A DNA stretch of 62,975 bases, the filler included, from Conidiobolus incongruus B7586 (taxonomy: Eukaryota): NCBI GenBank assembly GCA_000697335.1. It is 6 parts of 6 records of this genome, joined end to end, with 100 filler letters (N's around TTAATTAATTAA, not from the genome) between each part and the next. Parts side by side here need not be neighbours in the genome. Positions count along the whole stretch, not along the records: positions 50,091 to 58,511 come from JNEM01006219.1; 5 more parts are not named here. The stretch is one strand, 5' to 3'. This document shows positions 9,721-58,611 of this stretch, piece by piece (positions within the stretch are counted from its first letter, which is position 1; every line of letters begins with the position of its first letter). The notes under the pieces are model-generated. The model did no database searches. It saw only the letters and a program-made list of their open reading frames with translations, and was not told the origin of the DNA. The position numbers and the translations under genes were made by a program.

Positions 9721-10355
9721 AGGTTTTTATAGCAAATTATTATAACTAATAAACTATAAATCCCTTTATATAATTTTTTATTATAACATGAATTAAAATA
9801 TTAGGTTAAGTTATAATAATTATTTTCATAAATTTTAATAAATATTTTATTTATAAGAAAATATTAATTATTATAATAAATTATAATTTTATATATTATA
9901 CTTATTTGATTTTTAAGGGAAAATGATTTAATAATAAATTTTATATTGTTTTTTAAATAATACTGTTAATTAATTAATGATTTTGATATAATTTAAAAAT
10001 ATTTATTATTTTATATGATAATTATAAAATATATAAAATTATAAAGAAATTATTAATTAAAAATAATTAAAAAAACTACCATGTTTAATATATTTATTAA
10101 ATTATAACATATATAATTATAATTGTTTTAAATGATTAAAAAAATATACTAACAAGAAAAATATTCTTATAAATAAAATAAATTAGCTTGTAAAATATCA
10201 TATTTTAGTCTTTAATAAAAATGGTATTTTTTAAGTATTAGAAACTTTTTAAAAATATTATAAAACAGTTATTAGCGATAGAGTATTGATTTTATAACTT
10301 ATATATTAAAATCTTTATTTATTTTCAATCTCAAAAAATTCTCACTAATTAATTT
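9721..10355 (+). repeat. Unclassified AT-rich interspersed repeat (family 2)
   Basis: Colinear with 21139-21800 over ~600 bp (e.g. aggtttttatagcaaat vs aagtttttacagtaaat; gtctttaataaaaatgg vs atctttaataaaaagaa). May extend further left. Confidence 0.7.
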
Positions 10356-21038: not shown

Positions 21039-21138
21039 NNNNNNNNNNNNNNNNNNNNNNNNNNNNNNNNNNNNNNNNNNNNTTAATTAATTAANNNNNN
21101 NNNNNNNNNNNNNNNNNNNNNNNNNNNNNNNNNNNNNN

Positions 21139-21803
21139 AAGTTTTTACAGTAAATATTTAAAATTAATAAATCTTCAATTCTTTTATATAATCTTTTACT
21201 TAAAAATAAAATAAAATATTAAGTTAAATTATCTTTTTTATAAATTTTAATAAATAAATATTTTAAATATAAGTAAATATTAATTGTTATAATAAATTAT
21301 AATAGTATATAGTTTTTTTATTTAATACTTTAAAGAAAATTAATTAATAATAAGTTATATATTACCTTTTTAAATAAAACAATTTTTAAATAATATTTTT
21401 AATATAAATTAAAAACACATTATTTTACATAATAATTATAAATATATTAAATTAAAACTATAAAAGATTTTTTAAATAAAAAAAATAAAAGGAGTTACTA
21501 TATCTAATATATTCACTTAATTATAACCTATATGATTATAATTGTTTTAAACAATTAAAAAACAGCTTACAAGAAAAAAAATTCCTGTAAACAAATTAAA
21601 TTAATTTATAAAATATCAAATTTTAATCTTTAATAAAAAGAATTATTTTTAAATATTAAAAGCTTACTAAAAATATAAAAAAGAGTTATTAATAATATAA
21701 CAAGCTATTAATTTTATATTATTTATTAATTTTTATATATTATTTATTAATTTATTTGTTTAATTTCAATCTTAAAATTGTGCCATTATTTAATTTCTAC
21801 ACT
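21139..21803 (+). repeat. Unclassified AT-rich interspersed repeat (family 2)
   Basis: Aligns with 9721-10355. Its last ~247 bp are the reverse complement of 37982-38228. Terminus aattgtgccattatttaatttctacacta. Confidence 0.85.
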
Positions 21804-21906
21804 AATATTAATTAACTCCTGGATAATAAAATATCTTGAATAAATGAATTCAATTCCAAAATTGAGAATTTGAGAAAATTTATAAAAAATTTCATTTCCA
21901 AAATAA

Positions 21907-22820
21907 TCAATCTTTTCCCTCAATTCCAACTAATACAAATCTCCCTCCCCCTCTTGAGTAATCATAAACTGGAAAAATACTTGAAAGTGCAGCGTCTAGC
22001 GAACACGTCGAATATGTCAAAGGTCTTGCATAGTTGATTAAACACTGTTTGATGGTGGCGTCTGTGAGTGCAATAGCAACGTAGTTACTGAGCACTCTCC
22101 CGAATGCAATAAGACGGAAGCACACTTCGCGGATTCTGTTTCTCAAAATTCTGCACATAGACCACGGCAGGAAGGACGTCGAACTCCGACGGAGTGAGCT
22201 TCATGAGCGATCAGATGGAAATGATTGGATTTGCAAATATCGAGTAATTCTACCAGTGACGCAGTATCGTCCTCCATCGAGTGGACATCTTCTACAACTA
22301 TGAATACCTGAATATCCTTAGTTAAATAATTTTAATGACTCGCTTTAATATTATTCACAATCTCCATAAAATGGTCCAAATTATTATGTCTAGAGCTGAA
22401 CTGATTCCTACACTTACTCAAGTTCAACCCATCATGAACACTCGCATTGGTCAACTTGTAGATAATATAATTTCTAGGCTGCAAACGACATCCGAAAATT
22501 CTCAAGTTAGCAATGCACCTATTATTAAAGATCAAACCAGTGTCACTATCCTGAAACTTGGCAATGTTGATTTCTAGCGAGTTGATGTAGTAGTGATTGC
22601 CATTCAACAGTCTCGAACAAAAATTCCGAACTCTTCCAGTTAGTCAAATGATATTACTTAATCAACTCTTGCAACAGCGAATTGTCAGTAGCCAGTCCTA
22701 AATAATCGTCGGACAAACAATCATACTGATCTTTTTTTGAAAGTTAGTTTTCTCCAAGTACCAACTCATGACCTCTTTTATAATAGGTTTTTGAGTTTTT
22801 TTTTCAAGTGTGATTGTCAT
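21907..22820 (-). pseudogene. bioF: 8-amino-7-oxononanoate synthase (BioF, PLP class II) pseudogene
   Basis: Colinear decayed motifs: DCLSDDYLGLA (DFSSNDYLGL), SRLLNGN, IIYKLTNASVHDG (IIYDELIHASVHDG), RHNNLDH, IVVEDVHSMEDD (VESVYSMDGD), IAHEAHSVGV (VDEAHATGV), AFGRVL (TFGKA, catalytic Lys lost), LINYARPLTYST. Stops and frameshifts throughout. Confidence 0.85.
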
Positions 22821-26252: not shown

Positions 26253-26540
26253 ATGAAAGCTGGTATCTTTACTCTCTTATTAACTCCCATCTTGGGTGAA
26301 ATCTGGTTAGAAGGAGCTCGCACCGATGGTACTGTCAGTCACATTGGTGGTACTACCGGATGTTTCGGTACTTTCGGTTCCTTCGTCAAGGTGAAGGCCA
26401 GTGCCGGTAGTTTAGCTCTATTCTACGACGACTATGGCTGCAAGGGCAAACAAATCTACGACGTTGTCGAAGGCGAGCACGATTTACCCCGTCCCATCAA
26501 TGCTAAATCTGTTGAAATTTTCGACCTTGGCAACTTATAA
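26253..26540 (+). CDS. Small secreted protein (95 aa, 2 Cys)
   Basis: Signal-peptide-like MKAGIFTLLLTPILG, coding-like GC and codon usage in an AT-rich background, upstream TATA, downstream AATAAA. Confidence 0.85.
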   Translation: MKAGIFTLLLTPILGEIWLEGARTDGTVSHIGGTTGCFGTFGSFVKVKASAGSLALFYDDYGCKGKQIYDVVEGEHDLPRPINAKSVEIFDLGNL

Positions 26541-27102: not shown

Positions 27103-27918
27103 CTAATCTTCCGATCCCGAGAAATCGAACTCGTCGAAGATAGCTTTGACCTTTTCGGTATCTTTGGGAGCGTTGTGGTCGGTACCAAAGTGGGAGTACA
27201 CCCTGCTGATATCATCTTTGTGAATGAACTGTTCGTCCTCTACCTTCACGTCGTTCTGGTCCAAATTCAGTTTGTCGAGACCTTCGCCCTCTCTTTGTAG
27301 TTTACTCTTCAGGGGTCGGATGAGGTCAGGATGAGCAAGAAGTCCAGATCGCATCACCACTTCACCAGGGTAAGGCGGCTCTGCAGGGATATTTCTCGTG
27401 GCATTGTCAAAATTAGGAGGTGCCGACGTAGTGCTGCTAATTCTCTGAGCATACGATAACACTGTTGAAATATCTACCATATGTCCCCGGCTGTTTTCAT
27501 TTAATTTGGACTGGGCTCTTGTGATCAATTGATAGAGGTTCGCTTTAGCAAGTTGCAACTGTTCGATCATTTTTAGGACTGCACGCTCCTCCTTCCCTAA
27601 TTCGTGGTCAATAGCATCCAAATGAGCCTGAATTCTACGATGGTTGATAATATACGGCAACGAAGTGGTCAACTTCTCATTCAGCTCCAGCAACTCATTC
27701 AAGGCATTTGGAATGTTTGGTAAACTATTGGTCTTCCCTTCAATTGTTCCATTAATTAATTTGAATAATTTTTGAATCGCTAACAAATACTGCTTTAATA
27801 AATCGGACATATAATCTTTCAAACTAACTTTGTAAAATGGATTCTTCTCATCTTCAATTCTTTCTAGATTTATAGGTGGAATAGTATTGGGTATAGATGG
27901 ATTTTGTAAATTAGACAT
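27103..27918 (-). CDS. MED4: Mediator of RNA polymerase II transcription subunit 4
   Basis: Coiled coil followed by VLSYAQRIS...PP...PYPGEVVMRSGLL, the conserved Med4 signature. Single exon. Confidence 0.88.
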   Translation of the reverse strand: MSNLQNPSIPNTIPPINLERIEDEKNPFYKVSLKDYMSDLLKQYLLAIQKLFKLINGTIEGKTNSLPNIPNALNELLELNEKLTTSLPYIINHRRIQAHLDAIDHELGKEERAVLKMIEQLQLAKANLYQLITRAQSKLNENSRGHMVDISTVLSYAQRISSTTSAPPNFDNATRNIPAEPPYPGEVVMRSGLLAHPDLIRPLKSKLQREGEGLDKLNLDQNDVKVEDEQFIHKDDISRVYSHFGTDHNAPKDTEKVKAIFDEFDFSGSED

Positions 27919-29293: not shown

Positions 29294-30755
29294 CGTAACT
29301 ATTTGGAATAGTTATATGAGCTTATATTCAGGTCAATTCAGAGCTGCTCCAGTCGCTCAGCTCCTATATAATACTATCATTTCCAAAGCTAACTAATCAT
29401 AGCATTGGATAATTTCGTTTCTCAATCAAGTTCCATATTTTTTAAATATATCGATTTTTTAGTGTAATTATGATTTATTTCCAATATATATATATAATTA
29501 TTTAATAATTTTACCAAATTTAACTTTCAATTCTATTAGAAATTAATTTAGACAGTATAAGTATTTTTAAAAAGATTTACAATTCAAATTTATATTCAAT
29601 AATAATTTCTTAATATATAATTTTATATTTATATATTTGTCAAAGTTAGTGACAATTCTTCAAATATCTAATTTATCATAAATTATCATAAACTAACATT
29701 AAATATCATATTAAAACTGAATTATCTGAATGAAATACGATTAATTAATTTATTTTTATTAGGTGTTCTTGTTCATTATTAAGCATTGATTGAAATTTAT
29801 TTCATAGATATATTTTTAATTTTAATTCATTTGAATAGCTATTTTAATTAATTGATATTATAAAAAAATATATGGCCATCTTATATTTAGTATTATTTAC
29901 AGACAGTATTATTATCATAATATTTATGATTTAGTATTTATTGGATTGGCTATCTTCCATTACATTTTATCAGTAAACCCTATGTTATTGAGTTCAAGTT
30001 ATTGTTTATAAAACTTTGAACCAATTATCAAGAATTAAAGAGATTATCCAAGTATAAAAGGTCACAATTTTTAAATCTTTTACACACATAGCTCTTTCTG
30101 ATTTATAATAATAGTTATTAATGTAAATTTCAAGTTTAATAAAGCATATTAATAATTATTAATATATAATGTTTAATATCTAATATTATATTTATCAGAC
30201 TAGCACTATAAGGTATTTTATAATGAAACTATTTTTCTTTTTATTTTTAATTGATTTTTATAAATATAAATTATAATTTAATAAATAGAGATATAACAAT
30301 TGCTAAATAAATATATTTTAAATTGAATTAGTATATGTTGTATTAACTAATTCATTATTATATAAATATAATTTTATAATTTTAATTATTTGAAAAAAAA
30401 ATTATTATTTAATATTTATTTAATTGTATTTTATAAAAAATAGTATTTTGATCATGGTGAGATTATTATTCTGATTATTATACTTGAGCTGTTCTATTAG
30501 GACAATTAAACACTAAAATATAATATAATTTATAGATAAAGTATTAGTTGCAGAAAAGTGTCATGGTATTTTATAATAATAATATAAATTTAATATTAAA
30601 TACAGATACTGGTAAATAATATTAATTCGAAATAAATCTTTAAATACTATAAAATTTTTATTGCATTGTTAATTATAATCTGGATATTTTATTTAATATA
30701 CCAAATTAAAAAATTTAAACAAAAAATCACTAATATCCAATTAAGGTGTAGATAA

Positions 30756-31891
30756 TTAAATATTCCTAAAAGGATTTTCGACGAATTCGAGATTAGGAGG
30801 TGAAGAGGTAATGCCATTCCAAAACTTAAACTTATATTCATCATAGAGTTCTCTTAACCCTTGACAATATTTTTCATGTAATTGAATTATATCTTCCTCA
30901 GTTGGATTTAAGTTTTTTTCAATTTGAATAGGTTTACCAACTAATAAATATTAATAAATGTATTAAAAATGGAGTTAATAATATTATTATTACCAACAAT
31001 GTTAATAGGTACATTTTTGGGGAATAGACCCTTAGTTCCTGGGTAAATACCTCTGCCAGAAATCATTGGAATAAAAAATCCGATTTGTTTGTATAGTTTG
31101 GCCCTCAGTTTGACGTGCCAAGCTTCGAAATCCACTGGAGATTGGTCATAGACTTCATTCTCTCCAAATGCGTAAATTGGTACAAGATCAGCACTAAAAA
31201 TTTTATGAAAAACAAATTAAAAATATTTGATAATATTAAATTACCCTGATTGAAGTGCAATTTTAACAAATCCAAATCGATTTTTAATTATTAATTTTGC
31301 AGTGTTTGGTATTGCAAAAACCATTTCAGCACCACCGCCAATATTGATGGCTACACTTTTACCAGGACCCATTCCCAAAGTCTTCAATATGGATTCCTTA
31401 CTCACAGTCTGAAATCCGAATAAAAGACACAGTTCCCTAAGTAATGGAAAATATGTAAAGAACCTATGTCCCTTAATATTGACATCAATCCCTGGGAACA
31501 TTTCATCCAATCCACAAGCATTAGAATTCAGTCCAATAGCCATACCCCAAGGTGTTACACCGTGAGGATGATAGCCAAAGATATAGTTCTTTGAAGGATC
31601 CAGATCGCTAACTTTATGTAGTTTCATATTGAAATATTCGGCGCCGATTTTATATATCGAACTATTGCGATATTGATTGGATTTTGGACTACCGTATTTG
31701 GACCTAGGATCAAAGTAGATATATATGCAGTAGATTAGGACTGTATATCTATATCTCGAATAAATAGCTAATAGCATTATGAAAGTGGCAACAGTTGAGC
31801 CCAACATAGACCAAATCAACCAAATGTGCCTTAATTGTAATTTTGAATCTTTAATAGATAATTTAGAATTATTATTTTTGTTTATTTTCAT
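30756..31891 (-). CDS. DGAT2/MOGAT-family acyltransferase, copy 1 (3 exons)
   Basis: YIFGYHPHG, GGGAE, RFGFVKIALQSG / ADLVPIYAFGENE...PINIV / VGKPI...LEFVENPFRNI*. Confidence 0.92.
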
Positions 31892-31925
31892 TCTTTAGAT
31901 TATCTAATTAATTATGGTTTAATCT

Positions 31926-31927
<2 letters not shown>

Positions 31928-31954
<27 letters not shown>
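31928..31954. repeat. (AT)n microsatellite in DGAT copy 1 promoter
   Basis: About 13 AT units. Confidence 0.85.
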
Positions 31955-31959
<5 letters not shown>

Positions 31960-32732
31960 TGATTTTTGATTTGTATTTATACTTTAATAAATATGGGGTA
32001 ATTAATATTAGGAAATTATAGGAGATTACCACCCCATTCAAAGTACTAAACTGTCAATCAATAACACCAAAACTTTTTATTAATAATTTTAATTAATTTG
32101 AAATTATATATATATTCAATATATTTTTATACTGATAAAAATATCAAATCCAAGCAAACAATTTTTAAATAATAATATAATAACTGTATATATTAAAATA
32201 TTTATCAATATTTTTATAATTTTTTTAATAAAATTCATTTAAATTATTTTAATAAATAAATATTATATTTTTATTAATTATGATTCAATTTAAATTATAA
32301 TAATAATATATTTAAATAAAAAAACTTAAATAATATTATAATTGTTATAAATTAGTCAAGTGTTTATTGATAATTACATTTGTTTTTTAAATGATATATG
32401 AGTAAGTTGAAAGTGTATTTATTAATACTCGCTTTTCTATCATATTTATTATTATGGTTTACTAGATTTAATATTGAAACCTTGTTATTCTTCAAACTCG
32501 AAAATTCATTAATATTCCATTTAATTACATTCAAGATCATTTTATTAATTAATTATAGACATTTAGCATCTATGATTTTATTTATTATTAAATATTAATA
32601 TATATCATTGTTTATATTTTCAGATATTATTGGTTAATGTCTTATGAAAATTAATCAATTTTATAGTACAAATTTAAAAACTGATTTTCAGATTATAATT
32701 GAGAAGCCTCAATTCTATTAAATTTTTAATTT

Positions 32733-33863
32733 TTAAATGCTTTTTAATGGATTTTCCACCAGTTCAAGATTTGGAGGAGGAGTACCATAGTACCAAAACT
32801 TTGATTTATATTCATTAAATAAAGATTTGAGAGCTTCACAATATTGTTCATGTAATTCTATTACTTCTTCATCTGTGGGATTAGAGTTTCTCTTAACTCG
32901 AATAGGTTTACCAACTACATTTTATATTAGTTTAATGTATCAATAGTGAGCAATATAACTTAATTACCAACTATATTAATAGGAACATTTTTAGGGAATA
33001 TACCCTGAGTTCCTGGTAAAATACCTCGACCACTGATGAAAGGTATAAAAAATCCTGACATTTGATAAAATTTGGCTCTTAATTTAGCATGCCAATCATT
33101 CAAATTGACTGGATCTTGGTCAAATGCATCATTCTCACCAAATGAGTACACAGGCACAAGGTCAGCACTATTTAAAATATATTAATATATTCTCATTACA
33201 AATTAATATGGTCGATTACCCAGCCATTAATGCTATTTTAACAAATCCAAAGCGATTTTTAACGATTAATTTAGCAGTGCCCGGGACTGCAAAAACCATC
33301 TCTGCGCCACCTCCAATGTTGATGGCAACACTTTTTCCAGGTCCCTGACCAAGAGTTCTGAAAATTGACTTCTTGTTCACAGTTTGAGCTCCCATTAAAA
33401 AGCACAATTCTCTAACCAGTGGGAAACGAGAGTAGAAGTAATGCCCTTTAATATTTAGATCAATTCCAGGAAACAAATCATCAAATCCACATGCGTTAGA
33501 GTTAATACCCACTTGCATGCCCCAAGGTGTTGCACCATGAGGATGATAGCAAAATATATAGTTCCTACTCGGATCCAAATCACAGGTTTTATGTAATTTC
33601 ATATCAAAGTATTCTGCAATAGTTTTAAAAACTATACTGTTTCTATATTGGTTTGACGTTGGACTACCATACATCGATTTAGGATCAAAGTATATATAGA
33701 TAAAGTATAACAGTACAAAGTGCCAGTACCCCCAATAAACTAATGAAGCAAGAATAGCAGCACCCAAAACAGGAACCACAATTGAAATAATCAAAAAAAT
33801 ATGTTTAAAATGTAAAGTTGAATCTTTCAAAGGGACTGCTAAGTTATTATTTGTAATTTTCAT
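32733..33863 (-). CDS. DGAT2/MOGAT-family acyltransferase, copy 2 (3 exons)
   Basis: YIFCYHPHG, GGGAE, RFGFVKIALMAG / ADLVPVYSFGEND / VGKPI...VENPLKSI*. Same intron positions as copy 1. Confidence 0.92.
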
Positions 33864-36241
33864 TATATTTTTTTATAAAACTTTTTAATTTAAAAAAATA
33901 ATATAATAAAATATTTAATGATGTATTTATAATAAAATTTCAATCAGAATTTGAATCAATTGTGTAACTTTAATTAATAATATGATTTGTTAAGTTAATT
34001 TAATTTATTATAATAAGGGAAAACTTATTGTTGATCAATTTTTATTTTATCTGATATTTTGTCAAGTATAAACTTACTCAATTAAGTATAAATTAATTTT
34101 TTAATTAATAATATATTAAGTGGTTAATTTAATACTTTTTTTTATTTCATAATTATTTAATTGATAAAATGAAATTTTATAAATTTTAAATTAAATTAAA
34201 TTTTTAATATAAAAGTATAATTAAATATTCTAAAATAATATTCAATTTAAATAAATTAATATTCGCTTAAAATATGGACTAGTGTAATATTAATATTTAT
34301 AATTAAAATAATTATATAGTTTACATTTATTGAATAATTTTTTAGGTATCTAAAAATATCCATTATTATTCTCGCTGAATTCAACAAGTTTTTATCATTG
34401 ATATTTTTATTATACACTAGTTTTAATTGTTATTATAATTATAAAACCTATAATTTTTGCAAATAATTAATCTTAATTAAATTTTTTAAAATATAAATTA
34501 TTATTTAATTTTTATACTTGTTAAAAATTATTTTAATAATGGTAAAGTAAATATATTCATTTATATATTAATTCAATTATAATTTTTATAACATAAATAA
34601 AATATTAATCAAGTTACTTTAAATATTAAATTGAAATTATAAAAAAGGGGGGTTTAAATTTAATCAAATATTAATATTGGATCCATTCAAAATTCAAAGA
34701 ATCTGAGAAGGGTTATTGATATTATACACCCATATTGATCCATTATTATAAGTGGAAATCAATTGAAATAAAAATATAAATATAATTTTAAAAATACTGA
34801 TGCTTTGTATTATTTTGATAACCACAATATATACATGAAAATTTATGACATATTTTTTAAACATCATAATCATTAAAATATTAAGAGTGGCTAATAGTTT
34901 TTACAAATAATTTTTTCATTTTATAATATATAATATATAGTAATTATTAGTTTTTTTAATGAATAATATACTTTCTTTACTAGATAATTAATTTATGATA
35001 AATTTAATTAAAATTTTTCAAAAATTTTTAATATTAATTAATATAATTTTTTTTAAATTAAATAATTTGAAATAATATTAATATATTGAACTTAGGTATA
35101 TATTCTTTGGACCAATGCACATTTAGATAAAATATTTTAATACTAGGTACTAATATCACTCAATAATTAGTAAATGTATTAATACCAATCTCTGCAATGG
35201 GTATAGTGAGGTTAGTAGTAAATAAATGTTGATTAATTGCAACTTGGAATCCTTCAACAAGACATTTCAATTATCACATTTTACGACTAGTATAATAATT
35301 GGTTTTTAATCTAGCCAGGTTTGAATAAAATTTTCTGAACATTATTTATATTCTAATAAATTAGATTTAATGAAAAACTACTTGAATTCATTAATTTGAG
35401 ATATTGTGGCTCTACCAATTGCTAGTAGGACGCTATTAATATGGAAGGAAGCGGTTTCCTCGTGGATTATTTTTATAGTTTGAATTAAAGTGCTTTATTA
35501 GGGCTTGCTAAGGGTTTAGTAGACTTTACAAAAGACCAGATGTGATGATGAAAATGTATTCCAACAATGGTTCTTTTATAGACCATTCATTGTCGTGGGT
35601 AATGTAAAGTGTATTAGGTCTTCAGAAAAGTGAGACCTTAAAGTGGTGTGACGGGTATTCCGGGGTTATATCTTCATAAAGCAATAGATAATGAGAAGTT
35701 AGTTGGGTGAGTTATCATCTAGGTGACCAGAATATATTTTACTTGGCCAATTAGCTGCAAATAAATAGATTATAGTATATGAATATAATTATTTTTTTTC
35801 TAAATTAATTTAATATTAAAGGAGAAATAATTATACAAAAAATATATATGATTCATATGTATATTTTTGAAATTAAAAAGTTTACAATTTAAAATAAATT
35901 TTATAAAAATTTATCAATAATTTAAATATAAATTACTAATTATTATATTGTAATATTGAATTTGGTGAGTATATTAAAATCCATATTTTTTAATATATTA
36001 TATAAAATTAAATTATATATTTATATTCTATTATATTTTTTTCATTTATGTTAAATTTCTGATAAAAATTCTTAGAAATTAATGGCAAAAAAAGTTAAAT
36101 ATTCTCAATAAAAATGTATTTTAATAAGAACTTGAAATTAATAATAAAATGCTGATAAAATTTTGGATATAAGATATTAGCGTAAGATATTTAAGAATTT
36201 AATTAAAAGTAATTAATTTAATTATTTTTATAATTTAATGG

Positions 36242-37375
36242 TTATATGTATTTTAATGGATTTTCAACAAGTTCAAGTGAAGGAGGTGATGTAGTTTTAT
36301 CATACCAAAATTGGGATTTGTATTGATCATATAGAGATTTAAGTGATTCACAATATTGTTCATGTAATTCCATTACTTCTTCATCGGTAGGATTAGAGTT
36401 TCTCTTGACTGGAATCGGTTTACCAACTAAATTTGATATCAATTTAATATATCAATAATGAGCAATATAACTTAATTACCAACTACATTGATAGGTACGT
36501 TTTTGGGGAACATACCTTTTGTTCCTGGTAAAATACCTCGACCTGTAAAATTAGGGATGAAGAATCCAAATTTTTTATATATCCAAACCCTGAGTTTAAA
36601 ATGCCATTTGTTGAAATCTACGGGAGTCTGGTCATATGCTTCAGTTTCTCCAAATCCAAAGACAGGTACAAGATCAGATCTATAAAAATTCCATCAATAT
36701 CAATTATATAGGACATAAAATAAAGAATTACCCAGTTATTACAGCAATTTTAATGAATCCAAAGCGATTTTTAACAATCAATTTGGCTGTTCCCGAGACT
36801 GCATAAATCATTTCTGCACCACCTCCGATATTAATAGCAACACCCTTTCCAGGCCCTTGACGAAGAGTTCTCAAAATTGATTCTTTATTAACAGATTGAG
36901 CCCCAAACATTAAGAACAGCTCCCTTAAAAGAGGATAGCATATACTCAACCTATGTCCTTTAATATTTAGATCAATACCTGGGAACATGTCATCGAATCC
37001 ACAGACATTAGAATTCAATGCAGCGAACATTCCCCAAGGGACAATGCCGTGAGGATGATAGCAAAATATATAGTTCTTTCTGGAATCTAAATCAGCTGTC
37101 TTATGTAATTTCATATCAAAATACTCGGCAATAATTTTAAATATTTTATGATCCCTGTATTGATTGGACGTTGTACTACCAGACTTGGATCTAGGATCAA
37201 AATAAATATATATCAAATAGGCTAACAAAATATACCAATATCCCCAATAAATAAGTGAAATCATAATCAAATCAGCTATTATTGGGACAACTATGAAAAA
37301 AATTAACCAAATATGCTGAAATTGTAAATTTGAATCTTTAATAGATCGTTTCAAATTATTATTATTCATTGACAT
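36242..37375 (-). CDS. DGAT2/MOGAT-family acyltransferase, copy 3 (3 exons)
   Basis: YIFCYHPHG, GGGAE, RFGFIKIAVITG / SDLVPVFGFGETE / VGKPIPV...VENPLKYI*. Same intron positions as copies 1 and 2. Confidence 0.92.
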
Positions 37376-37981
37376 ATTAAAAAAATTTTTTATAATTTAA
37401 TTTTATTCAAATTATTTCATACTTTAAAAGCTATTTATACTTAATTTATTAATTAATTTAATACAATTTAAAATAAATTTTGATTTATGTAACTAAATAA
37501 AGCCTTTAAAATTAATTATACCTTTTATTATTTTATATAATTTTCTGTAATTCATATTAAGTTTGAAAGTTTAAGTAGAATATAGCGAATATATTGATTA
37601 ATACAGATGCTTAATCAATTATTTAATTAATTCATTTTTGAAATTAATCTATCTAAAAATAATAACTTTAGATTGAAGTGAATTCAGTTTAATCAAAGTT
37701 TCACAATATAATTTTTCAACTATCGAGAAAAAGCAGATTACAATAAATTAAATTTTTTATACAACACATACATACATACATATATATATAATTTCCTTTA
37801 TACTTTATATAACCAATTTACAAATTAAAATATTAAATTATTTATTTATTTTATTAAATATTTATTATATTATTTGCATAAATTATTAAATTTTATTAAT
37901 TAATTAAAAACTATTAAATAATAAATTATATGGAAAAATAATTAAATTTAAATTGATTAGTAATAAATTTATTTAATTATT

Positions 37982-38228
37982 AATGCAGAAATTAAGTAAT
38001 GGCACAATTTTGAAATTAAAATTAAACAAATAAATTAATAAATAATATATAAAAATTAATAAATAATATAAAATTAATAGCTTGTTATATTATTAATAAC
38101 TCTTTTTTATATTTTTAGTAAGCTTTTAATATTTAAAAATAATTCTTTTTATTAAAGATTAAAATTTGATATTTTATAAATTAATTTAATTTGTTTACAG
38201 GAATTTTTTTTCTTGTAAGCTGTTTTTT
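37982..38228 (-). repeat. Family 2 repeat, inverted relative to 21557-21803
   Basis: The reverse complement is identical to 21557-~21765, then differs by 6 transitions in the last ~40 bp. Confidence 0.9.
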
Positions 38229-38328
38229 NNNNNNNNNNNNNNNNNNNNNNNNNNNNNNNNNNNNNNNNNNNNTTAATTAATTAANNNNNNNNNNNNNNNN
38301 NNNNNNNNNNNNNNNNNNNNNNNNNNNN

Positions 38329-45838: not shown

Positions 45839-45910
45839 TTAAGAATCCGAGCATCAATCTTGGTGCCTCTGCGTGCAAAGCGAGCGCTCTACCATATGAG
45901 TTAATTTCCC
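45839..45910 (-). pseudogene. tRNA-Ala(TGC) pseudogene
   Basis: GGGAAATTAACTCATATGGTAGAGCGCTCGCTTTGCACGCAGAGGCACCAAGATTGATGCTCGGATTCTTAA: Ala-type D and anticodon arms, but stems and B box are broken. Confidence 0.75.
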
Positions 45911-46543
45911 ATATTAAAACTCCGTAATATCTCATCCTATACTTAATATTATACGATCTAATATTTTTATATCAACAATCTCAAAGTAAATCAAAATTCA
46001 CTCCATTCGCTTTTAATACAATCGAAATATATAATGTGTATCAAAGAATTTTTACAATTAATTATTAATATAACTGGTTTTGAACTATAGATTTTGAACA
46101 TTTCATGATTTTATTTGGTATTAATCAGTATAAAATTCACAATTTCATATAGTTGAATACTATTTCTAAATAGTAATTATAATAAACTAAAAATTGTCAA
46201 AATACTTAATATTTCCACATATTTTAAATTTGAGTTAGATTATTTATGAAAATGCATATTTTGTAAAAATTCAATTGATTTGGATAATATTGAATAGTTA
46301 AATACACGATATAAATCAATCATCCCTCAAAGTTGATTAACTGTTAATCTTCACAATTATATCCATATTAATTTGAAAAACTATATTCATTCCAAAAAAT
46401 AAATAAATATTGAATATTATTTGATCAATAGATTATACAGCCATATTATATTTCAGAATAATTTAAAATAAATAGAGTCTATTTATTTAGCAGAAAAAAA
46501 TATATTCATTTAACAAGATTATTATTATTTAAAAATTAAGGAA

Positions 46544-49029: not shown

Positions 49030-49394
49030 TATTAATTATAATTTATATTTATCTGTTATCAGATTATTTTTGAGAACTATATCTATTTATACTAATAATA
49101 TCAATATAATAATTATGGGATCTTAATATCTTTTTATCCAAATTTGGTTATTTGAAGGATCCACACTTCATAAAGATCACTATATTAATTCCCATAAAGA
49201 TTTAATTAGATCATATAAAGGATCTGATTATTAATAAAGAGTGACACTATTAAATCCTAAATAATCCTATATGATCTTATATAATCTGACAAAATCTTGT
49301 GTTTTATTTATTTTTTATTGGGTTTAACCTTTAAACTCGAATTAAGAAAATTTTGAATAATTAATCTGGAATTTAACTCCATTTAAAATATTAC

Positions 49395-49620
49395 TAAAGA
49401 AATTAAATAATAGCACAATTATATTATCAAAATTAAATATAATTCGAATAAATGATTAATAAAAATAAATAAAAAATATAAATTTAATACTTTTATTATT
49501 AAAAACTTTCTGTTATACTTTTAGTAAGATATTAACACTTAATAAATAGTTCTTTTTATTTACAACTAAGATTTAATATTTCATAAATCAATTTATATTG
49601 AAATCAAATAAATATGAATT
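49395..49620 (-). repeat. Family 2 repeat, diverged copy
   Basis: gaaattaaataatagcacaatt (49399) matches the terminus gaaattaagtaatggcacaatt (37988). Downstream ttagtaag...ttctttttatt is colinear. May extend to the gap at 49990. Confidence 0.6.
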
Positions 49621-50090
49621 TATCTTTGATTCAAGGAGCTATGAATAATATTCCCTTATAATATTAAATATATAAAAAATCATTAAAATTTTTAGAATCT
49701 TATATATAAGTTTAATTTTAATATTAAATAAAAATCCCAAAATTTTATAAAAAAGATTAATATAAATAAAAAATATTATATATAATTTTAAATGGAATAA
49801 TAAAAGATTAAATTTAATATTATTAAGTTTACTAAATATAAAAATGTTGAAAAGCTAATTCCATATTATTTGAAAATATTATTTTGAAAATAATATAATA
49901 TTTTGTTTAATATTAAGTTATTTTATTAATAATTAATATAAATATTTTACTTAAGATATAAATTTTAAATAGATAGGTTATTTATATTAANNNNNNNNNN
50001 NNNNNNNNNNNNNNNNNNNNNNNNNNNNNNNNNNTTAATTAATTAANNNNNNNNNNNNNNNNNNNNNNNNNNNNNNNNNNNNNNNNNNNN

Positions 50091-51289
50091 TTATAAAAAA
50101 AATAAATCAACTTGTGATATTGTTAGAATTACTAGTGTTAGCTAGTTTATTATAGTTAAAGTTGTTAAGAATAGCAATAAAGAAACATTTAAACCTAAAC
50201 TTAAATGTGTTAAAATTATAGATGAATATAATAAAAAATATATCTATAGGTTAGTTAATATAGGTAAATATAGTACTATTGTAGAAATACAACAGGAACT
50301 ATAAAACTATATAAGAATATTAGTTAACACTAATATTATTATATATACTTTATATTAGCATAGATACCACTTACACCTTAAGAAAAAACACCCCCAACTA
50401 AAAAAATCCTACTGTAAAACTAGGTGGGAGTTTAAATATCACCACTAATGTTAAACTAAAACTAATTAGAGTAAAGTTATTTAGTTTAATGAAACAAAAA
50501 TATACTTTAGTAAATTTAATAAAAAAGCTAGATATTTTAAAAAAGATACAGAATTACTTTATAACTATTATGTTAATTTTACCCAAAAGTATAATAATAG
50601 GTTAATTATTGTTTAGGGATGTATGTTGTTTTTAAGTATAAGGTATCTTTGTAAAATTAATAAGGGAATTAATATTAAGATATACTAAAGTATTCTAAAT
50701 AATAAATTGAAAAAAACCATTGAATAATATAAGTTAAACAAATCTAATATTATTTTCTAATAAGATAATACCTTTTGTTATACTATAGCTTCTATTACCA
50801 AATAGCTTAAAAATAACAAAATAACAGTTATAAAGTAGCTTCCTTAATTTTTTAACTTTAATCTAATTAAACACTTTTAAGATTAGTTAAAAAAAGCTAT
50901 TAAAGCTTTCCCCCTAATAAAAAATTTAAATCAACTTTAAAAATATATTTAAGAAGTATAGAGCAAGATTAACCCTTCTTAGTGTAAGAAGTTAGTTGAT
51001 TCTATACCCTACAAACTTAAAGAAGTTAGAAAAGCTAAAGGTAGATACACTAGGTTTTAATTTTTTTTATCACCAAAAACCTACAAATTTATAACTCACC
51101 TTAGGTAAAATTTAAAGGTTTATATTTTAACCAATTAATAACTAAATATCATTATTTAATGATATATATAACTAATAAATATAATAGATTTTAATTATTT
51201 AATTTAGGTTTATTTTATTAAATATTAATTAAGTTATTAGTAAAAATATAGGTGTTTTTGATTTTATAACTTACTTTTGCAGGTTAGTG
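50091..51289 (+). mobile_element. Tc1 (DD34E) transposon relic, copy A, left end lost in gap
   Basis: Back-mutating T>C and A>G restores WSKVIWSDETK (50467-), IFQQDNASCH (D at 50764), WPPQSPDLNPIEHLW (E at 50869, 34 residues after D) and LVDSMP...KAKGGYT. The right TIR ends TTTTGCAGGTTAGTG followed by TA. Confidence 0.93.
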
Positions 51290-52321
51290 TAGTATTAATT
51301 ATAATATTTATATAAATCAAACATACCATATTTCTTATTAATTATTAAATATTCTGAATTTAAAATATTTTTTTTATTTTAGTAAAAGATTTGATAAAAG
51401 TAAATTAAATCATATCTTAAGGATCATTATATATTTATATGTCAATTTAATAAATAAAAGCTAATTTTTTCCTAATTTTATAATCAATGTTATAAAAAGA
51501 AAATGATAGTAATATTTAGTATTACAGGTTTTATACTAAAATAATATAATATTTTATATTACTAGTTCATTTATATTAAAAATTAAATATTTAAATTAAA
51601 TAAAATTGAAATAAAAAAATATTTATAACATAAATTATAAATTATCATCAATTTTTCAAAATTTTAAATTAATATATATATTAAATATTTTTAAAATATT
51701 TTAATTATATAAATATATAATATTTTATTAAATTAAATTAAATATCAATTATTAAGTAACTTTTTGACTTATGAAAATTCTATAATCAAATTATTTATAT
51801 ATAAAAGAGTTTAAGTTTCTAGTTTAAGAAATATATTTGATATATTCTCAATATCAATATATATTATGTGATTTAAAAATAGATTTATATAAGATTAAAA
51901 TACTATTATTTATAATAATAGATTTTTTAAAAAAAGTTATATATTAAACTTGAAATATTTGAATATATTTTCAAAAAAATGTAATGCTAAAGTAAAGTTT
52001 ATATATTGAATATAAAAATATTTGGAATTATGTCAAATAATATATCAAAGAATTAAAAATATATAAATCTAATGAATTGCAAACTAAATATTCAATAATA
52101 TCTTTAAATATGAAATATTTAAATATATTGAAAATATTGATAAAATAAATATAAGTTAATATGTCTTATTAATATATTAATAATTACATATGTGCTATAT
52201 TCTTTTTTTACAGACTTAAACTTATGTTGAAATAATATTTCCTAATTTAATTGATTGAAACTAATGTGATTGATTATGCTTTTATCTAATAATCATTTAT
52301 AAAAATTAATTTTTATAATAC

Positions 52322-52547
52322 TGTCATAGATTAGATCACTTTGTCATCATCATGACACTGTCAACCATATCTTCTTACCTTACCTTATCTTTATCTACTT
52401 CATCTTATCTTGTCTGACTTTATCTTTAGACTATCTCCAACTTTTACATATAAAAAGGGAAAACATCATGAAATAAACAAGGGACTTGTCTTTACACTGT
52501 TCACACTGTTTACATCGAAACAACTCGTTTACATTGACCCTGTTATA
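52322..52547 (+). mobile_element. Solo LTR (226 bp)
   Basis: Starts TGTCATAG and ends CTGTTATA (TG...CA with CA>TA). Exact 5-bp TSD AATAC at 52317-52321 and 52548-52552. Internal TATAAAAAGGG followed by AATAAA. Confidence 0.85.
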
Positions 52548-54505
52548 AATACCAAATCAATTAAACACTAAATCTCCAATCTAACTATATAGAAATGATA
52601 ATATAAACGTTTGAAATATTTTTAATTTATATTAATATAATTCAAAATGTCTCAATTAAATTATATACACAGTATAATTATCTAAATTTATGAATTTAAG
52701 CTTAAATTTTTTTAATATATTTTATTATTAAGTATCTGATAATTTTTAATTATTAAATATTATTATCAAATTTTTGAAATAGTGTTAAAAATTTTATTTA
52801 TTTGTATATTTATTATTTGAAATATCACAAATGCTTTATATTTAAATAAAAATCTAAAATTAACTCAATCAAAATATAAAATATTTTATTGTTAGAATTG
52901 TTATATAATATAATTAATATGAGTATTGTTTTGCCTTTGCATACTCTTTTCTATTGATAGCTGAAAAATTTTAACTCATTGTTAAAAATAAAATAATTTA
53001 GTTTCTCTTATAATATCAATATGGATTAACCACTTTTAAATAACTTTAATTTATGCTTATTGAAAATGATCAAAATAGAATACGTCAATATTTTACTGCC
53101 AACTTTCATCATTTTTAAAGTTACATATTAATAAAATTTAAGAAATTAGATCTACTGCAGTTATTATATATTATCAATTTATGGCAATTTTCTTGAGTTT
53201 TATTACTCCTATGAAATATATTGACAAATACAACATTTTTAATAAACTTATGTCAAATTTACGGAATTAAGTGACGGAGATAAAGTTGAGATAACCGAGT
53301 AAGATTTAATATTATATTTTAAAATTAAATAATTTCATATACTTGATAATTTTAATATTTAAACCGTAAAATTAACAATATTAATATTTTTTAACCCGAA
53401 AATATATTATTAGCATATAAATTCCAATTGTTTAATTTTCATGATACTAATTACGAATAATAGAGATTTATAAAAATTAAATTTCCAAAATAAGCTTCTA
53501 AAACCTTATTTTTATTTACATTTATATATAAGAATACTAATAAATCTAATTTCAATTAACATATGAATTTATTAAATTTAAAGTTTACCCTATAATTAAT
53601 TATAATTTAATGATATTTTAATTGAAAACGTAGATCAATTAATTTTTAATGAAATTTTTTGTTAATTTTTTTAATTCGGATAAAATTATCAAATTTAGAT
53701 TCAAATAATTTAAATAAATTCAAATCTTAAATTAATTAAAGTTACCCTATTATGGAATATTTCAAAATAATAATACAAATTTTATATGAAAAATTAAAAT
53801 GAAATTAGAAATGTGGGGATTTTAAATTAGTTATATTCGATTTTTAAAACTATTATCAACTTAAGATTGGGTAAATTATGACAAAAATTCATAATATAAT
53901 TACTAATTTTCTTCTTTAAGAGGACAACTAATATGCAATAACCTTTTTTCTGCATTTATTCACCTTTATTTTTGGAATGTCACGCTCTTTAAGAATACTT
54001 TTAACCGAATCAATTATAACAAGGTAGTGGGGTGAGATAAAAATAGCTAATTGGCAAACTTTAAATATTTTATATATTATTAGGTTAAATAATTTCTTTA
54101 ATATTCAATTTATTTCTATTGATGAGGCTAAAACTCAGATAATGACAAGGTTTGAAATTGATTGATTGATTTATGATTGATTTTGATCAATTGCTTATTG
54201 TAGCAATACGAATGTAATCTGTGGATATAAATTTATTTTTCCAAGTTTGGTATTCCTGGATATTATTGGCCAACTCAAATGGACTGACAGACAAACAAGT
54301 AAAAAATTCAAAATAAAAAAGGAATGCGAGTTCAATAGAAACCGCTAATTCGAATTTTGGTTTTGATTTTGATTTAATACTGTTGTTGATTGGTCAATTG
54401 ACATGATTACTAAATAAAAATGAAATTAATCATTTTGTGTATAAAAGGATAGTATTGGTGAGGTAAGTCAGTAATATTGTAAGTTTTATCAACGTGAGTT
54501 ATAAT

Positions 54506-54865
54506 ATGATGAAATCTCGAGTAACAAACTATGAACAAATTGTTCAAACTATTGAAAAATTAAAACCTTTTGAGTGCATTGAAAAGATGGGATATATTTC
54601 TCAAATGCGTCGTAGAGGATCAAATGCATCCATTTGTTCACAGCAATCAATCGCGTTATCAGTTTGCTCAAATTCTTCTATAAAGTCAGTTGTACCATCA
54701 GCACTCGATTATGACACCGCTCTATACCAAAAGGGCTTTGAATTCCGCCAATTCGACTCCAATGAAGATTTCGATGCGATCATCGAACAAGGATTCCATG
54801 GGTATGGATTGGAATCCATGCCAACTTTAAAATTGACTTTAACACCTGAATTATTACGAAAATAA
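54506..54865 (+). CDS. Small orphan protein with RRRGS site and C-terminal DFD...TLKLTLTP motif
   Basis: Coding-like GC island; TATAAAA at 54440 and TCAGT ~28 bp downstream of it; first ATG at 54506. Confidence 0.75.
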   Translation: MMKSRVTNYEQIVQTIEKLKPFECIEKMGYISQMRRRGSNASICSQQSIALSVCSNSSIKSVVPSALDYDTALYQKGFEFRQFDSNEDFDAIIEQGFHGYGLESMPTLKLTLTPELLRK

Positions 54866-56665
54866 CTAATCTCAAACAAATTGAAAAAGCAACTGGTTAA
54901 GATTTTTTAAGAATTGGATCAAAACTCAAATTTTCTATCATTGAATACTTTACCTCCCTTTTAACTTAGCAATATCATCTATCTAATTGTAAATATTCAT
55001 TGAAATAAAAATCAAAATTGAAGAATAAAAAATAAATAATTCAAAATTTAATAAATTATAAAAATAATTATTTTAAATTTTATAAATACATAGTAATCTT
55101 AACCAATAGTTAATATACTCAATTAAAAAGTTTGAACAAGTCAATTAATTCACTTGTTTATTTCGAATATAGTTCATTTATTAAATATAATATCATTAAA
55201 TTTTATTATTTTATAATATATGCTTATCATTTTTCTTGTAAGTTCTATTGAGGTATGCATTCAATATTTTGAATTAAAAGTCAAATTCTACTAATAAATT
55301 TAAATATGCTAGGTTAAAATAATAATATTTGGTAGATTTGATTGATTCTTGTATAAAATTTAATATTGTTTTAATATAGTAATTAATATTTAGTTCAACA
55401 ATGCTATATTTATATTAACTATAATACTATATATTTATCAAATCTTGATTTCAAAAGTCAGTCTATATACTAATTATTAATCAATAGATTTTGAGGGTTT
55501 AAAGTTGATAAAAATATTTAACTAATTAGCCCTTATAAATAATCAAATTAATTTTAGAGCAATAAATGTATAAATCATATTTTTTACAATAGCGAGCTAA
55601 AAAATAACTTTTTATTAATCTAGAATTTCACCACTTAGCAAGGTAGTAACAAGAAAATATTTAGAATACAAGAAATTGAAGTGGATATATTATGAGAATA
55701 CATCTCTATTAATTTAATTTAAAAAATGCCCAATGACATTAATATCTTAATTAAACAGATATTTATATATTAACTAGAGAAAATGACTTAAGCCAGTAAT
55801 ATAAAATTATATCCATTTTCAATATTCAAATATTGACTAAACACTAAGATTTTGACTCTCTCAATTGATCATTATAAGCAATTTAATTTGCTCCCTTAGC
55901 TACTCATTTAGTTTTATAAAATAAATATGCAACTATTTATACTTATACTAGATTTTCTCAAAAAATTAATTTAAAATTAGATTATTATGGAATTTTAAAA
56001 TATTATAACATTGCAATATTTATTATAAGGTTTAAAATAATCTGTGTTTTTTTATTTATATTAGTAAATTTCAATTTAAAATAAAATATTTATATTAATT
56101 ATTAATATTAAATTGGTTAATTCTAATAATATAAGTTATTGTTTTTATAGATTTAGTTTTGAAATAGATTTATTAGATATAAAACTAAGCCATTTTTCAA
56201 GGAATTATAAATATATCAGGATTAAGTAATTAATTTAAAATAATTGAATAATATCTCAAAATTCAGTTTAAAATTAATTTAATATAAATATCATTAAAAT
56301 ATATTTAATAAAAACAATGTTTAAAGTTGAATATTATATAATATTTAATATAAAGAAATAAGATTCTATTATAAATTAATATTTTGATAATTCAAAAAAT
56401 TTTATTACTAGAAATAATCAATCCAATTAATATAATATTATTATAATTATGATAAAAAATATATGTTAAAATAATTTCAAGTTTTTAATTATTATAATTT
56501 ATTATAACTAAATATACAAGATATTTCAAATGATTATTTATTTATTATAATATATAAAAGTTATATTAAAAAAATCAAGTTAAAAATATAATACAAAAAA
56601 ATAAGATTTAATTGTTTATTAGATATATTTGATTTAATAAATTATAAACAAAATATTATAATATA

Positions 56666-58227
56666 TACTAGCCTACAAAAGTAAGTCATAAAATCAAAAT
56701 TACTTATATATTTACCTATATCTTAAACAATTCTTAATTAAATAAATTTAAATTAAAATATATAATTTACCTATATTAGTTGATTATAACTAACTATATT
56801 TGATTATATTTCATTAAATATTGGTTGATATATCAAAACCTAAAATTTAACCAAGGTGAGTTATAAATTTACAAGTTAATATATTAAAGGGGTATAAATA
56901 ACAAAACTTATATATATTCTTTTTCTTTTGTTTTATTATATATATTATAAAACTATTAAGATAATATTTTAAAATTAATATTATAATGTTTAAATCTTTT
57001 TTTAAAAAAGTTCACCTATGTATTAATCAACTTTATAATAAAAATAAATCAACTTATAAGATTGCTAGAATTATTAATATTAGCTAATTTATTATAGTTA
57101 AGATTATTAAGAACAATGTTAAAAAAACACCTAAACTAAAATTAAGTGTATTAAGATTATAGATAAATATGATAAAAAGTATATTTATAGATTAATTAGT
57201 ATAAATAAATATAATATTATTATAGAAGTATAACAAAAATTATAAAACTATATAAGAATATTAATTAGCATTAATACTATTATATATGTTTTATATTAAA
57301 ATAAATATCACTTATATCTTAAAAAAACACCTCTAACCAAAGAAATCTTACCATAAAATTAAATAAAAGTTTAAATGCTAAAACTAAAGTTGAATTAAAA
57401 TTAACTAAAGTAAAGTTATTTAGTTTAATAAAATAAAGGTATATTTTAATAAATTTAATAAAAAAGCTAGATATTTCAAAAAAGATAAAGAATCACTTTA
57501 TAACCATTATGTAATTATAATTTAAAAATATAATAGTGGGTTAATTATATTTTAAAGATATATATTATCTTTAAGTATAAGGTATCTTTATAAAATTAAT
57601 AGGGGAATTAATATTGAGATATATTAAATTATTTTAACCATTGAATTGAAAAAAATTATTGAATGGTATAGGTTAAATAAATCAAATATTATTTTCTAAC
57701 AAGATAATACCTTTTGTTATATTATAAATTCTACTATCATTTGGCTTAAAAATAACAAAATAACTGTTATAAAATAACCTTCTTAATCTCTTAATCTTAA
57801 CCTAATTAAATATCTTTGGGATTAATTAAAAAAATTAATTAAAATTTTCCCTCTAACAAAAAATTTAAATTAACTTTAAAAGTATATTTAAGAAGCTTAG
57901 AATAATATTAGTTTTATTTAATATAAGAAGCTAGTTGACTCTATACCCCATAAACTTAAAGAAGTTAAGAAAGCAAAAGGTAGATATATTAGATATTAAT
58001 TTTTCTATCAATATTAAAACTTATAAATTTATAACTTACTTTAGGTATAGTTTTAATTTTAATATATCAATTAATAATTAATTAAATTTAACTTTATATA
58101 TTATATTATAAATAAAAAATATATTAATCATATAGTTTAATATAAATTTATTTAAATTAGAATTGATCAAGATATTAATCAAAATATTTATATTTTTAAT
58201 TTTATGACTTATTTTTGCAAGCTAGTA
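56666..58227 (+). mobile_element. Full-length Tc1 (DD34E) transposon relic, copy B, ~1.56 kb
   Basis: Left end TA|TACTAGCCTACAAAAGTAAGTCATAAAATC and right end TTTTATGACTTATTTTTGCAAGCTAGTA|TA (TA TSD). Decayed transposase ~56986-57999, colinear with copy A, with HTH-like KST..IARI...S. Confidence 0.93.
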
Positions 58228-58611
58228 TATATATATATATATCAAAATTAATTATTAAAAGTATATTATTAATTGAATATTATATTGTATCATAACAGTA
58301 ATAAGGTTAAAAAGGATATTGGTATTTAAATATATATTTTGTACAAAATATATAATCTAATAATATAATTTTTTATCAAATTTATTTTTTATATTCCTAG
58401 AGTCTTAAAATATCAAGTTTTAATTTTGAATTCTAATTAATATTATATAGAAATTTTATAATTCTTTTTAATAGTATTATTAAATAATATTTATAAATAT
58501 ATTAGGAATATNNNNNNNNNNNNNNNNNNNNNNNNNNNNNNNNNNNNNNNNNNNNTTAATTAATTAANNNNNNNNNNNNNNNNNNNNNNNNNNNNNNNNN
58601 NNNNNNNNNNN

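Follow-up and report, generated by a model that had tools for sequence, protein, structure and literature searches.

Mutagenic defence against repeats is so far credited almost only to Ascomycota, and two ruined Tc1 transposons in the genome of Conidiobolus incongruus B7586 (GCA_000697335.1) raise the question of what process could have produced comparable damage elsewhere in the fungi. The window, meaning the whole stretch of DNA analysed, comprises 62,975 nucleotides, filler included, in six joined parts. The original prediction described a RIP-like hypermutation of repeats in an apparently non-Dikarya host, and its core observation stands: in the Tc1 copies more than half of the C:G pairs have turned into T:A, which is not so in neighbouring single-copy DNA.

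Judged from one marker, the host is a Conidiobolus-type fungus outside Dikarya (Zoopagomycota), as had been supposed. Med4 is 79% identical to that of Conidiobolus coronatus (E 1.7e-134), the sole match among 445 candidates, which places its closest relative outside Ascomycota and Basidiomycota and speaks against a Pezizomycotina species with ordinary RIP.

27103..27915, minus strand: Med4, the taxon marker

Two dead copies of one Tc1 element

50091..51289, plus strand: Tc1 copy A, its left end lost at the contig join 49991-50090
~50091-51059, plus strand: transposase remnant of copy A
~51065-51289: right inverted repeat of copy A, with TA at 51290-51291
56666..58227, plus strand: Tc1 copy B, full length
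56664-56665 and 58228-58229: TA target duplication of copy B
~56666-56890 and 58000-58227: inverted repeats of copy B
56983..57999, plus strand: dead transposase frame of copy B, with 26 internal stops and a terminal stop, collinear with the intact transposase P0004

The assignment of both copies to one Tc1 element was borne out by the features of the Tc1/mariner (DD34E) group, namely a TA target duplication, terminal inverted repeats (about 225 bp) and an HTH + DDE transposase. With stops read as X, the copy B frame was aligned by phmmer, nearly without gaps, to the intact 338-aa transposase P0004 (E 2.3e-37, 30% identity), whose domains are DDE_3/HTH_Tnp_Tc3_2; a Pfam search of the same frame found no domain, and the identification is that given by phmmer. 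No close intact member of the exact family was found: with the best relatives, C>T/G>A changes by themselves account for 60-67% of codons, and the name Conidiobolus is absent among the best 120 matches.

Wherever the intact relative has Trp (10 codons), both copies read TAA, TAG, TGA or TGG, with the T unchanged throughout, and the codon comparisons quoted in the original prediction are correct as given. Its claim that the two copies complement each other back to a transposase went too far: of the 31 in-frame positions with a stop, 22 carry one in A and B alike, two catalytic-motif codons are altered in both, and merging the copies raises identity to P0004 only to 36%, from 31-32% for single copies.

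Spectrum, context and independence of the losses

The spectrum was polarised at 108 conserved codons, with intact Tc1 relatives as outgroup. Conserved C:G sites have become T:A at 59 of 106 positions in copy A and 64 of 106 in copy B, all other changes amount to 4 of 195 conserved sites in each, and C:G>T:A accounts for 123 of the 131 polarised substitutions in the two together, the near-exclusive transition spectrum expected of RIP. In a deeper alignment with 120 intact relatives, C>T affects 58-67% of C:G sites and other changes 3.5-6% of sites; as a control of the method, four intact relatives showed C>T at 0-6 of 124-140 C:G sites. Direct comparison of the copies over 964 aligned core columns yielded 180 differences (150 transitions, 30 transversions) and 3 gap columns, in agreement with the dense changes of both kinds on the same strand and the few indels originally reported. 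Losses confined to one copy comprise 27 C and 29 G in A, and 46 C and 48 G in B. C>T and G>A are intermixed (strand-run test, z 0.82 and -1.45), and the lack of strand clustering in either copy neither shows nor excludes repeated rounds.

The absence of CpG, first noted by eye, holds in both copies, against 12.1 and 9.0 (21 in all) expected. Loss by context reaches 10/10 at CpG, 76-80% at CpA, 67-75% at CpT (n=12) and 38% at CpC, an order in which CpT lies between CpA (76%) and CpC; CpA and CpC differ clearly over both copies (35/46 vs 23/60, p 1.6e-4). The CpA/TpG observed/expected ratios are 0.65 and 0.67, in keeping with the heavy damage first ascribed to CpA/TpG. All five CGN-type Arg codons are destroyed in both copies, one of them reading TG in A but CA in B. 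Restriction of the mutations to CpG, which the original prediction had named as counting against it, was not found, since 58 of 106 CpA and CpC sites are lost over both copies; nor is there the strong preference for CpA over every other context that marks Pezizomycotina RIP, as CpG is lost most. This rank of CpG, missed in the earlier reading, points towards DNA methylation and not Neurospora-type RID specificity.

The losses in A and B are mostly independent and not mainly inherited from a decayed ancestor. The independence first claimed needs qualification overall, 47 sites being lost in both copies against 39 expected (p 0.002, all contexts), and largely holds within known contexts, where little excess is seen (CpA 14 vs 15.2 expected; CpT 7 vs 6.0; CpC 11 vs 7.7, p 0.08). 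The excess is therefore largely gone once known contexts are separated, and persists at sites of undetermined context (45 vs 39, p 0.001).

The family is very abundant in the contigs of two sequencing runs (X1 and X3), in which summed contig depth does not equal copy number; runs X5 and X7 gave 0 contigs for it, which does not prove absence. Transitions make up 92-93% of the variable places (379/408 in X1, 386/420 in X3), and in X1 the bases of copy A vary to T/A at 103/117 C and 101/125 G. As both runs come from one sample, possibly the source of the window itself, they show the family genome-wide and are not independent support. Among the best-supported 40 of 422 variable-site rows, 14 of 27 sites lost in A are lost in B too, yet 49-82% of family depth retains the base. 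Furthermore, A<>T differences are concentrated in the inverted repeat (20/179 vs 18/707 in the frame, p 5e-6) and frame transversions at third codon positions (15/30, p 0.04), which suggests that the A and B lineages split while still under selection.

Single-copy controls and other repeats

21850..22800, minus strand: BioF/AONS-like pseudogene, the control, where substitutions are of mixed kinds and CpG survives
51290..52320: right flank of copy A, 0 CpG vs 3.4 expected, CpA/TpG observed/expected 1.13
55900..56665: left flank of copy B, 0 CpG vs 2.3 expected, CpA/TpG observed/expected 1.05
52322..52599, plus strand: solo-LTR-like segment, with inverted termini and a near 4-bp target duplication (by eye)
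9723..10324, plus strand: family-2 repeat, ~90% AT; other copies at 1-370, 21141-21815, 37969-38228 (inverted) and 49381-49600 (inverted)
45840..45911, minus strand: tRNA-Ala-like pseudogene, matched weakly in Rfam (17 bits, E 0.21)

For Tc1, a C>T hypermutation confined to repeats and broad in context is supported against intergenic, BioF and 4-fold controls, and the argument that this is not generic AT drift was upheld. The composite RIP index is +0.92 and +0.45 in the Tc1 copies, against -0.52 for intergenic DNA pooled at equal GC (20%), and such AT-rich DNA keeps CpA. The BioF pseudogene (GC 0.37) retains 30 CpG vs 32.6 expected, and C>T/G>A make up 5-7 of its 13-15 substitutions against 123/131 in Tc1 (p 1.3e-5), a count made by eye against homologues of ~30% identity, from solved-structure alignments, after a homologue search with the pseudogene gave no match. 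Three DGAT paralogs, 68-73% identical, are intact, with transitions in 6/24, 9/24 and 4/18 of their 4-fold differences; their spectrum and that of BioF are mixed, free of the transition excess that in single-copy neutral DNA would have spoken against the original prediction. Its second control, an "F-box" pseudogene, likewise keeps GC (0.31) and CpG (20 vs 28.7 expected), although the label itself found no Pfam match. Genes adjoining the Tc1 copies are intact.

The extension of the same bias to other repeats fared less well. The solo-LTR-like segment does not share it, since 2 CpG are kept, CpA/TpG observed/expected is 1.27, the index is -0.07 and the interior is not depleted; only its end bases fit. 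In family 2 the index (+0.16), the CpG count (2 vs 6.1 expected) and the 97% pair, alone at 6 transitions to 1 transversion, agree with it, whereas five older pairs have ts/tv of 0.6-1.1. In the tRNA-Ala-like pseudogene, stem pairing judged by eye points to ~4-5 G>A/C>T, but it keeps 4 CpG and is too short to count; ARAGORN and a whole-window Rfam search returned an intact tRNA-Leu only. The short LTR-like segment and the DGAT paralogs at 68-73% identity escape, which makes too few cases for any length or identity threshold.

Mechanism and known systems

The Tc1 copies were likely mutated, at a probability of roughly 0.55, by a repeat-targeted DNA cytosine methyltransferase driving C-to-T change, a RIP-like defence without need of RID. 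The Tc1 family spread to many copies; these would have been detected as repetitive DNA and their cytosines methylated whatever the context, above all at CpG, and the marked cytosines would have turned to T at ~20-40x the rate of all other changes. The process would be cumulative, given that C>T and G>A lie mixed along the copies and form no strand runs. Stops have arisen from Trp, Gln and Arg codons and catalytic-motif codons have changed, and the Tc1 copies are therefore dead. Zygospore formation and vegetative growth are both possible as the stage of mutation. A precedent exists in the Dim2-dependent mitotic C>T mutator of Zymoseptoria repeats (PMC8016269), and PF00145 genes occur in all Entomophthorales studied (PMC11105155). 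Counting against this reading, reviews report little 5mC in Zoopagomycota (PMC11258239, PMC13297926), the signature is well supported in one repeat family and lacking in the solo LTR, and more losses are shared by A and B than chance would give. A search of the supplements of PMC11105155 and PMC11258239 yielded no Conidiobolus DNMT inventory.

It is rather unlikely that the repeats, densely methylated in all contexts, merely decayed by spontaneous, unrepaired deamination of 5mC with no dedicated mutagenic step. The loss of CpG, more complete than that of any other context, the lack of strand runs and a possible CpG-only loss in the flanks (0 vs 6.5 expected over three flanks, weak in the right flank of copy A) would suit such decay, and the order CG > CA > CT > CC resembles that of broad-specificity methyltransferases. 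However, even CpC is lost at 38% when all other changes total ~2%, and CpG exceeds non-CpG by little, beside fungal CG-type methylomes with far less 5mC outside CG (CG 2.8-16.4% vs non-CG 0.4-2.5%; PMC7862722).

Canonical RIP of the Pezizomycotina kind, the premeiotic mutation of paired duplications by a RID/Masc1-type enzyme, is improbable. The both-strand, transition-only spectrum with CpA preference, the stop of CpA loss at element boundaries and the escape of the short solo LTR and the DGAT paralogs resemble it, as does the lack in C. coronatus of repeats of at least 1 kb at 95-100% identity (PMC12543289, supplement file 3), which assembly collapse could also cause. Nevertheless, RID/Masc1 homologues are known from Dikarya only (PMC5751038), the Entomophthorales candidates share only 12-14% identity with RID and are expressly not termed homologues (PMC11105155), and complete CpG loss with 38% CpC loss is broader than the Neurospora CpA bias.

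Editing of transposon DNA by an AID/APOBEC-like cytidine deaminase is very improbable: the pure C>T spectrum on both strands would fit it, but the preference is for the 3' neighbour, the 5' context affected least is TpC (24/53 vs ApC 68/103) and strand runs are missing from either copy. Cut-and-paste elements, moreover, are not known to pass through a long single-stranded intermediate. Generic AT-biased decay, one decayed ancestor or a sequencing artefact is largely refuted, for the low intergenic GC (11-26%) and 4-fold GC (22-24%) and the excess of shared losses are outweighed by the mixed control spectra, the intact genes beside the copies, the bases retained across the family, the signs of a split under selection and the G/C loss of AT-rich Dictyostelium, where transitions number 7 and transversions 9 (PMC7466956). 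An artefact of bisulfite treatment or of DNA damage was rejected, the changes being fixed in assembled contigs, the same in two runs and sparing adjacent genes.

More tentatively, Zoopagomycota may run their own homology-triggered, RID-independent RIP (CpG > CpA > CpT > CpC), which would predate Dikarya or have evolved twice and which composition screens could have missed in genomes already AT-rich. A 2025 kingdom screen concluded that RIP-like signatures are unique to ascomycetes and scored 8/8 Zoopagomycota, C. coronatus included, as no_rip (PMC12543289); under a window-scale version of its rule the hypermutated Tc1 copies yield zero k-mers, and the rule misses the window. At the level of single copies, the window gives evidence for C>T mutagenesis of RIP strength, restricted to repeats, in a Conidiobolus-type fungus. 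If general, this would alter the history of genome defence in fungi, may account for the unclassifiable, very AT-rich repeats of such genomes, and would offer a culturable system for asking how, in the absence of RID, a methyltransferase turns into a mutator.

Among known systems, the RIP-like CpG/TpCpG transitions in Basidiomycota repeats, reportedly described by Horns et al. in 2012, likewise destroy CpG in transposons without RID, whereas most lost cytosines here are non-CpG. RIP itself (RID, DIM-2; Neurospora and other Pezizomycotina) shares the confinement of C:G>T:A to repeats, its presence on both strands, the scarcity of indels, dead transposons, preference for CpA among non-CpG contexts and a positive composite index; it differs in that the host here belongs to Zoopagomycota, RID being reported absent outside Dikarya (PMC5751038), and that CpG is wiped out with CpC/CpT heavily mutated. 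The Zymoseptoria tritici Dim2 mutator, methyltransferase-linked and needing no sex, also places >90% of its changes at C>T in repeats, but >98% of that C>T falls at CpA with CpG spared (PMC8016269), a pattern not seen here, where CpG is fully lost and CpC/CpT are hit. In Entomophthorales, the same fungal order, PMC11105155 argues with major caveats, from dinucleotide indices, that RIP may act, with signal in the same direction in 24.2% of windows in Z. radicans, 5.7% in E. maimaiga, 2.7% in M. cicadina and 2.4% in E. muscae, so that "possibly undescribed" was too strong given this index-only hint in Zoophthora and its relatives; that work used indices only, with no Conidiobolus value in its accessible part, and the present analysis adds a polarised spectrum, a context ranking, an independence test and single-copy controls.

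Direction and sequence context of the changes

The window comprises six separate contigs, and neighbourhood across the five linkers between them is not genomic evidence.

50091-51289, copy A, Tc1 element truncated by the contig end
56666-58227, copy B, full Tc1 element with TA duplication and long inverted repeats
12477-12576, 21039-21138, 38229-38328, 49991-50090 and 58512-58611, five linkers of 100 bases, identical to one another (a 12-base all-frame stop between two runs of 44 N)

With X placed at stops, copy B matched 1285 proteins (E up to 0.001), the best being P0004 (E 2.3e-37), an intact 338-aa transposase with HTH and DDE_3, with which it is collinear along its entire length. Aligned with each other, copies A and B show 180 differences over 964 core columns (150 transitions; 3 gap columns), and all 10 of 10 Trp codons now read TAA, TAG, TGA or TGG. 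The original prediction that the copies complement each other back to a transposase was not borne out, since 22 of 31 stop positions are common to both and merging them yields 36% identity to P0004 versus 31-32%.

In a polarised count over 108 codons that are conserved in P0004 and the four intact loci nearest to it, C>T was observed at 59/106 C:G sites in copy A and 64/106 in copy B, with other changes at 4/195 sites in each. Three further conservation filters, using 120 relatives, gave 58-67% C>T and 3.5-6% other changes, the second figure being a ceiling because lineage differences are counted in it; four intact relatives treated identically gave 0-6 C>T. The corrected C>T distance is 0.81-0.93 versus about 0.02, so that C>T is in excess some 20-40 fold, according to the baseline chosen. 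Over the frame, C>T and G>A are interspersed and evenly spread. The absence of CpG first noted by eye and the broad context were both upheld: CpG numbers 0 in 2,761 bases (21 expected), CGN-type Arg codons are destroyed in 5/5 cases in each copy, and loss reaches 35/46 at CpA versus 23/60 at CpC (p 1.6e-4). Loss at CpT is 67-75% (12 sites), which a two-copy count places lower, near CpC, and TpC is the 5' context struck least.

Independence of the copies and extent of the family

The changes had been described as largely independent, and for the most part they are: joint losses exceed chance overall (47 versus 39, p 0.002) but not within CpA (14 versus 15.2) or CpT (7 versus 6.0); a weak excess occurs within CpC (11 versus 7.7, p 0.08), and the excess remains at sites of unknown context. 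One CpG has turned into TG in copy A but into CA in copy B. Two observations suggest that A and B stem from separate active ancestors: the inverted repeat carries A<>T differences at 4.4 times the density of the frame, and third positions account for half of the transversions in the frame. As a caveat, the two arms of copy B differ from each other by as much, so drift or poorer alignment of such AT-rich sequence may be all that lies behind this.

Contigs from two runs of one sample were placed on copy A at 80% likeness, with 29,613/493,904 and 36,236/1,490,999 matching and transitions accounting for 379/408 and 386/420 variable places. Among the best 40 of 422 sites, the alternative letter is carried by 46-120 distinct contigs per site, and G/C is kept in 49-82% of depth at the 27 sites with A/T in copy A, having gone from B too at 14 of these. 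The family would comprise hundreds to thousands of copies, depth not being equivalent to copy number. At 50843 and 50963, copy A keeps C/G, but T/A makes up 89% of the family's depth at the first site and more than 99% at the second, pointing to hot sites, subfamily marks or a change private to A. Contigs connecting 50258-50289 to 51286-51291 link the right end of the element, in either orientation, with its interior, which suggests that some Tc1 copies lie nested within others.

Restriction to repeats

By the composite RIP index, the copies score +0.92 and +0.45, family 2 (an approximately 90% AT repeat family) scores +0.16, and 12/12 intergenic stretches score -0.32 to -0.86 (pooled GC 0.20, CpA/TpG o/e 1.11, CpG o/e 0.6). 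The CpA deficit ends at the element boundaries; three flanks contain 0 CpG (6.5 expected), a weak hint of possible CpG-only spread. The single-copy BioF pseudogene (21850-22800, minus strand; match to a solved AONS, E 5.6e-22), the internal control, keeps 30 CpG versus 32.6. A by-eye count at residues common to three distinct homologues (about 44 C:G sites) gave 5-7 changes of the C>T/G>A type and 3 of the T>C/A>G type, together with 5 transversions at C:G and a single deletion, a spectrum distinct from that of Tc1 (p 1.3e-5), with about a quarter of its C>T load although BioF is older by other changes. At the 4-fold sites of the DGAT paralogs, most differences are transversions. The main exons of these three tandem DGAT2-type paralogs (30600-37400; 68-73% DNA identity) are open, and transitions are not in excess; their escape is consistent with a threshold of identity or with targeting through chromatin. 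Unlike the Tc1 copies, a tRNA-like pseudogene (7300-7371, plus strand; anticodon CCA for Trp; weak match to Rfam at 17 bits) shows mixed changes by stem pairing and has retained its CpGs.

The bias proposed for other repeats fared less well. The solo-LTR-like segment (52322-52599, plus strand) was tested for depletion and none was found. Family 2 gives a mixed picture, with a positive index and one transition-rich inverted pair but a ts/tv of 0.6-1.1 in five older pairs; the older pairs and the LTR-like segment speak against generality. The inverted pair (21557-21815 and 37969-38228; 97% identity; 6 transitions, 1 transversion) has one arm lying where a contig ends, and could reflect either a young copy or the assembly. 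In this Tc1 family the signal is real, strong and confined to repeats.

Host, earlier reports and cause

Med4 matched only Conidiobolus coronatus among 445 candidates (79% identity, E 1.7e-134), so by this one marker the host is placed as a Conidiobolus-type member of Entomophthoromycotina, consistent with the predicted non-Dikarya origin. Window genes include importin-13, IRE1-type kinase-RNase, SNAPC3, TBCA and DGAT, and presumably dynein and VPS13. Two open frames have no Pfam hits: 54467-54865 (plus strand, 132 aa), between the Tc1 copies and retaining a CpG cluster, and 26253-26540 (plus strand), which spans about 90 aa and whose start resembles a signal sequence.

According to PMC12543289, RIP signatures are confined to ascomycetes and Zoopagomycota are scored no_rip in 8/8. 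Among C. coronatus repeats of at least 1 kb it lists 555 in the 80-95% identity range and 0 in the 95-100% range, and its supplement classes 2.29/2.56 Mb of that species' repeats as 'Unknown' and 0 bases as DNA transposon, as expected if repeats were hypermutated there too. When its two-fold k-mer rule is adapted to the scale of the window, it takes 0 k-mers from copies A and B. The finding is anticipated by one index-based report; in the literature covered, which leaves out most subscription papers, no copy-level mutation spectrum was found for Conidiobolus or any Zoopagomycota repeat.

C>T in the Tc1 family is repeat-restricted, both-strand and broad in context. A methyltransferase-coupled mutator is the favored cause (probability about 0.55), because the context order begins at CpG, RID is reported only from Dikarya (PMC5751038) and a Dim2-dependent mitotic mutator is already known (PMC8016269). 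Passive 5mC deamination, the main competitor, is distinctly less probable. Canonical RID-type RIP appears improbable, a deaminase slightly more so, and drift or artefact very improbable. The mutagenesis seen here would be a RIP-like variant new for a phylum now scored without RIP. The outcome in these Tc1 copies resembles that of RIP, but they lack its CpA specificity and are not to be classed as RIP.
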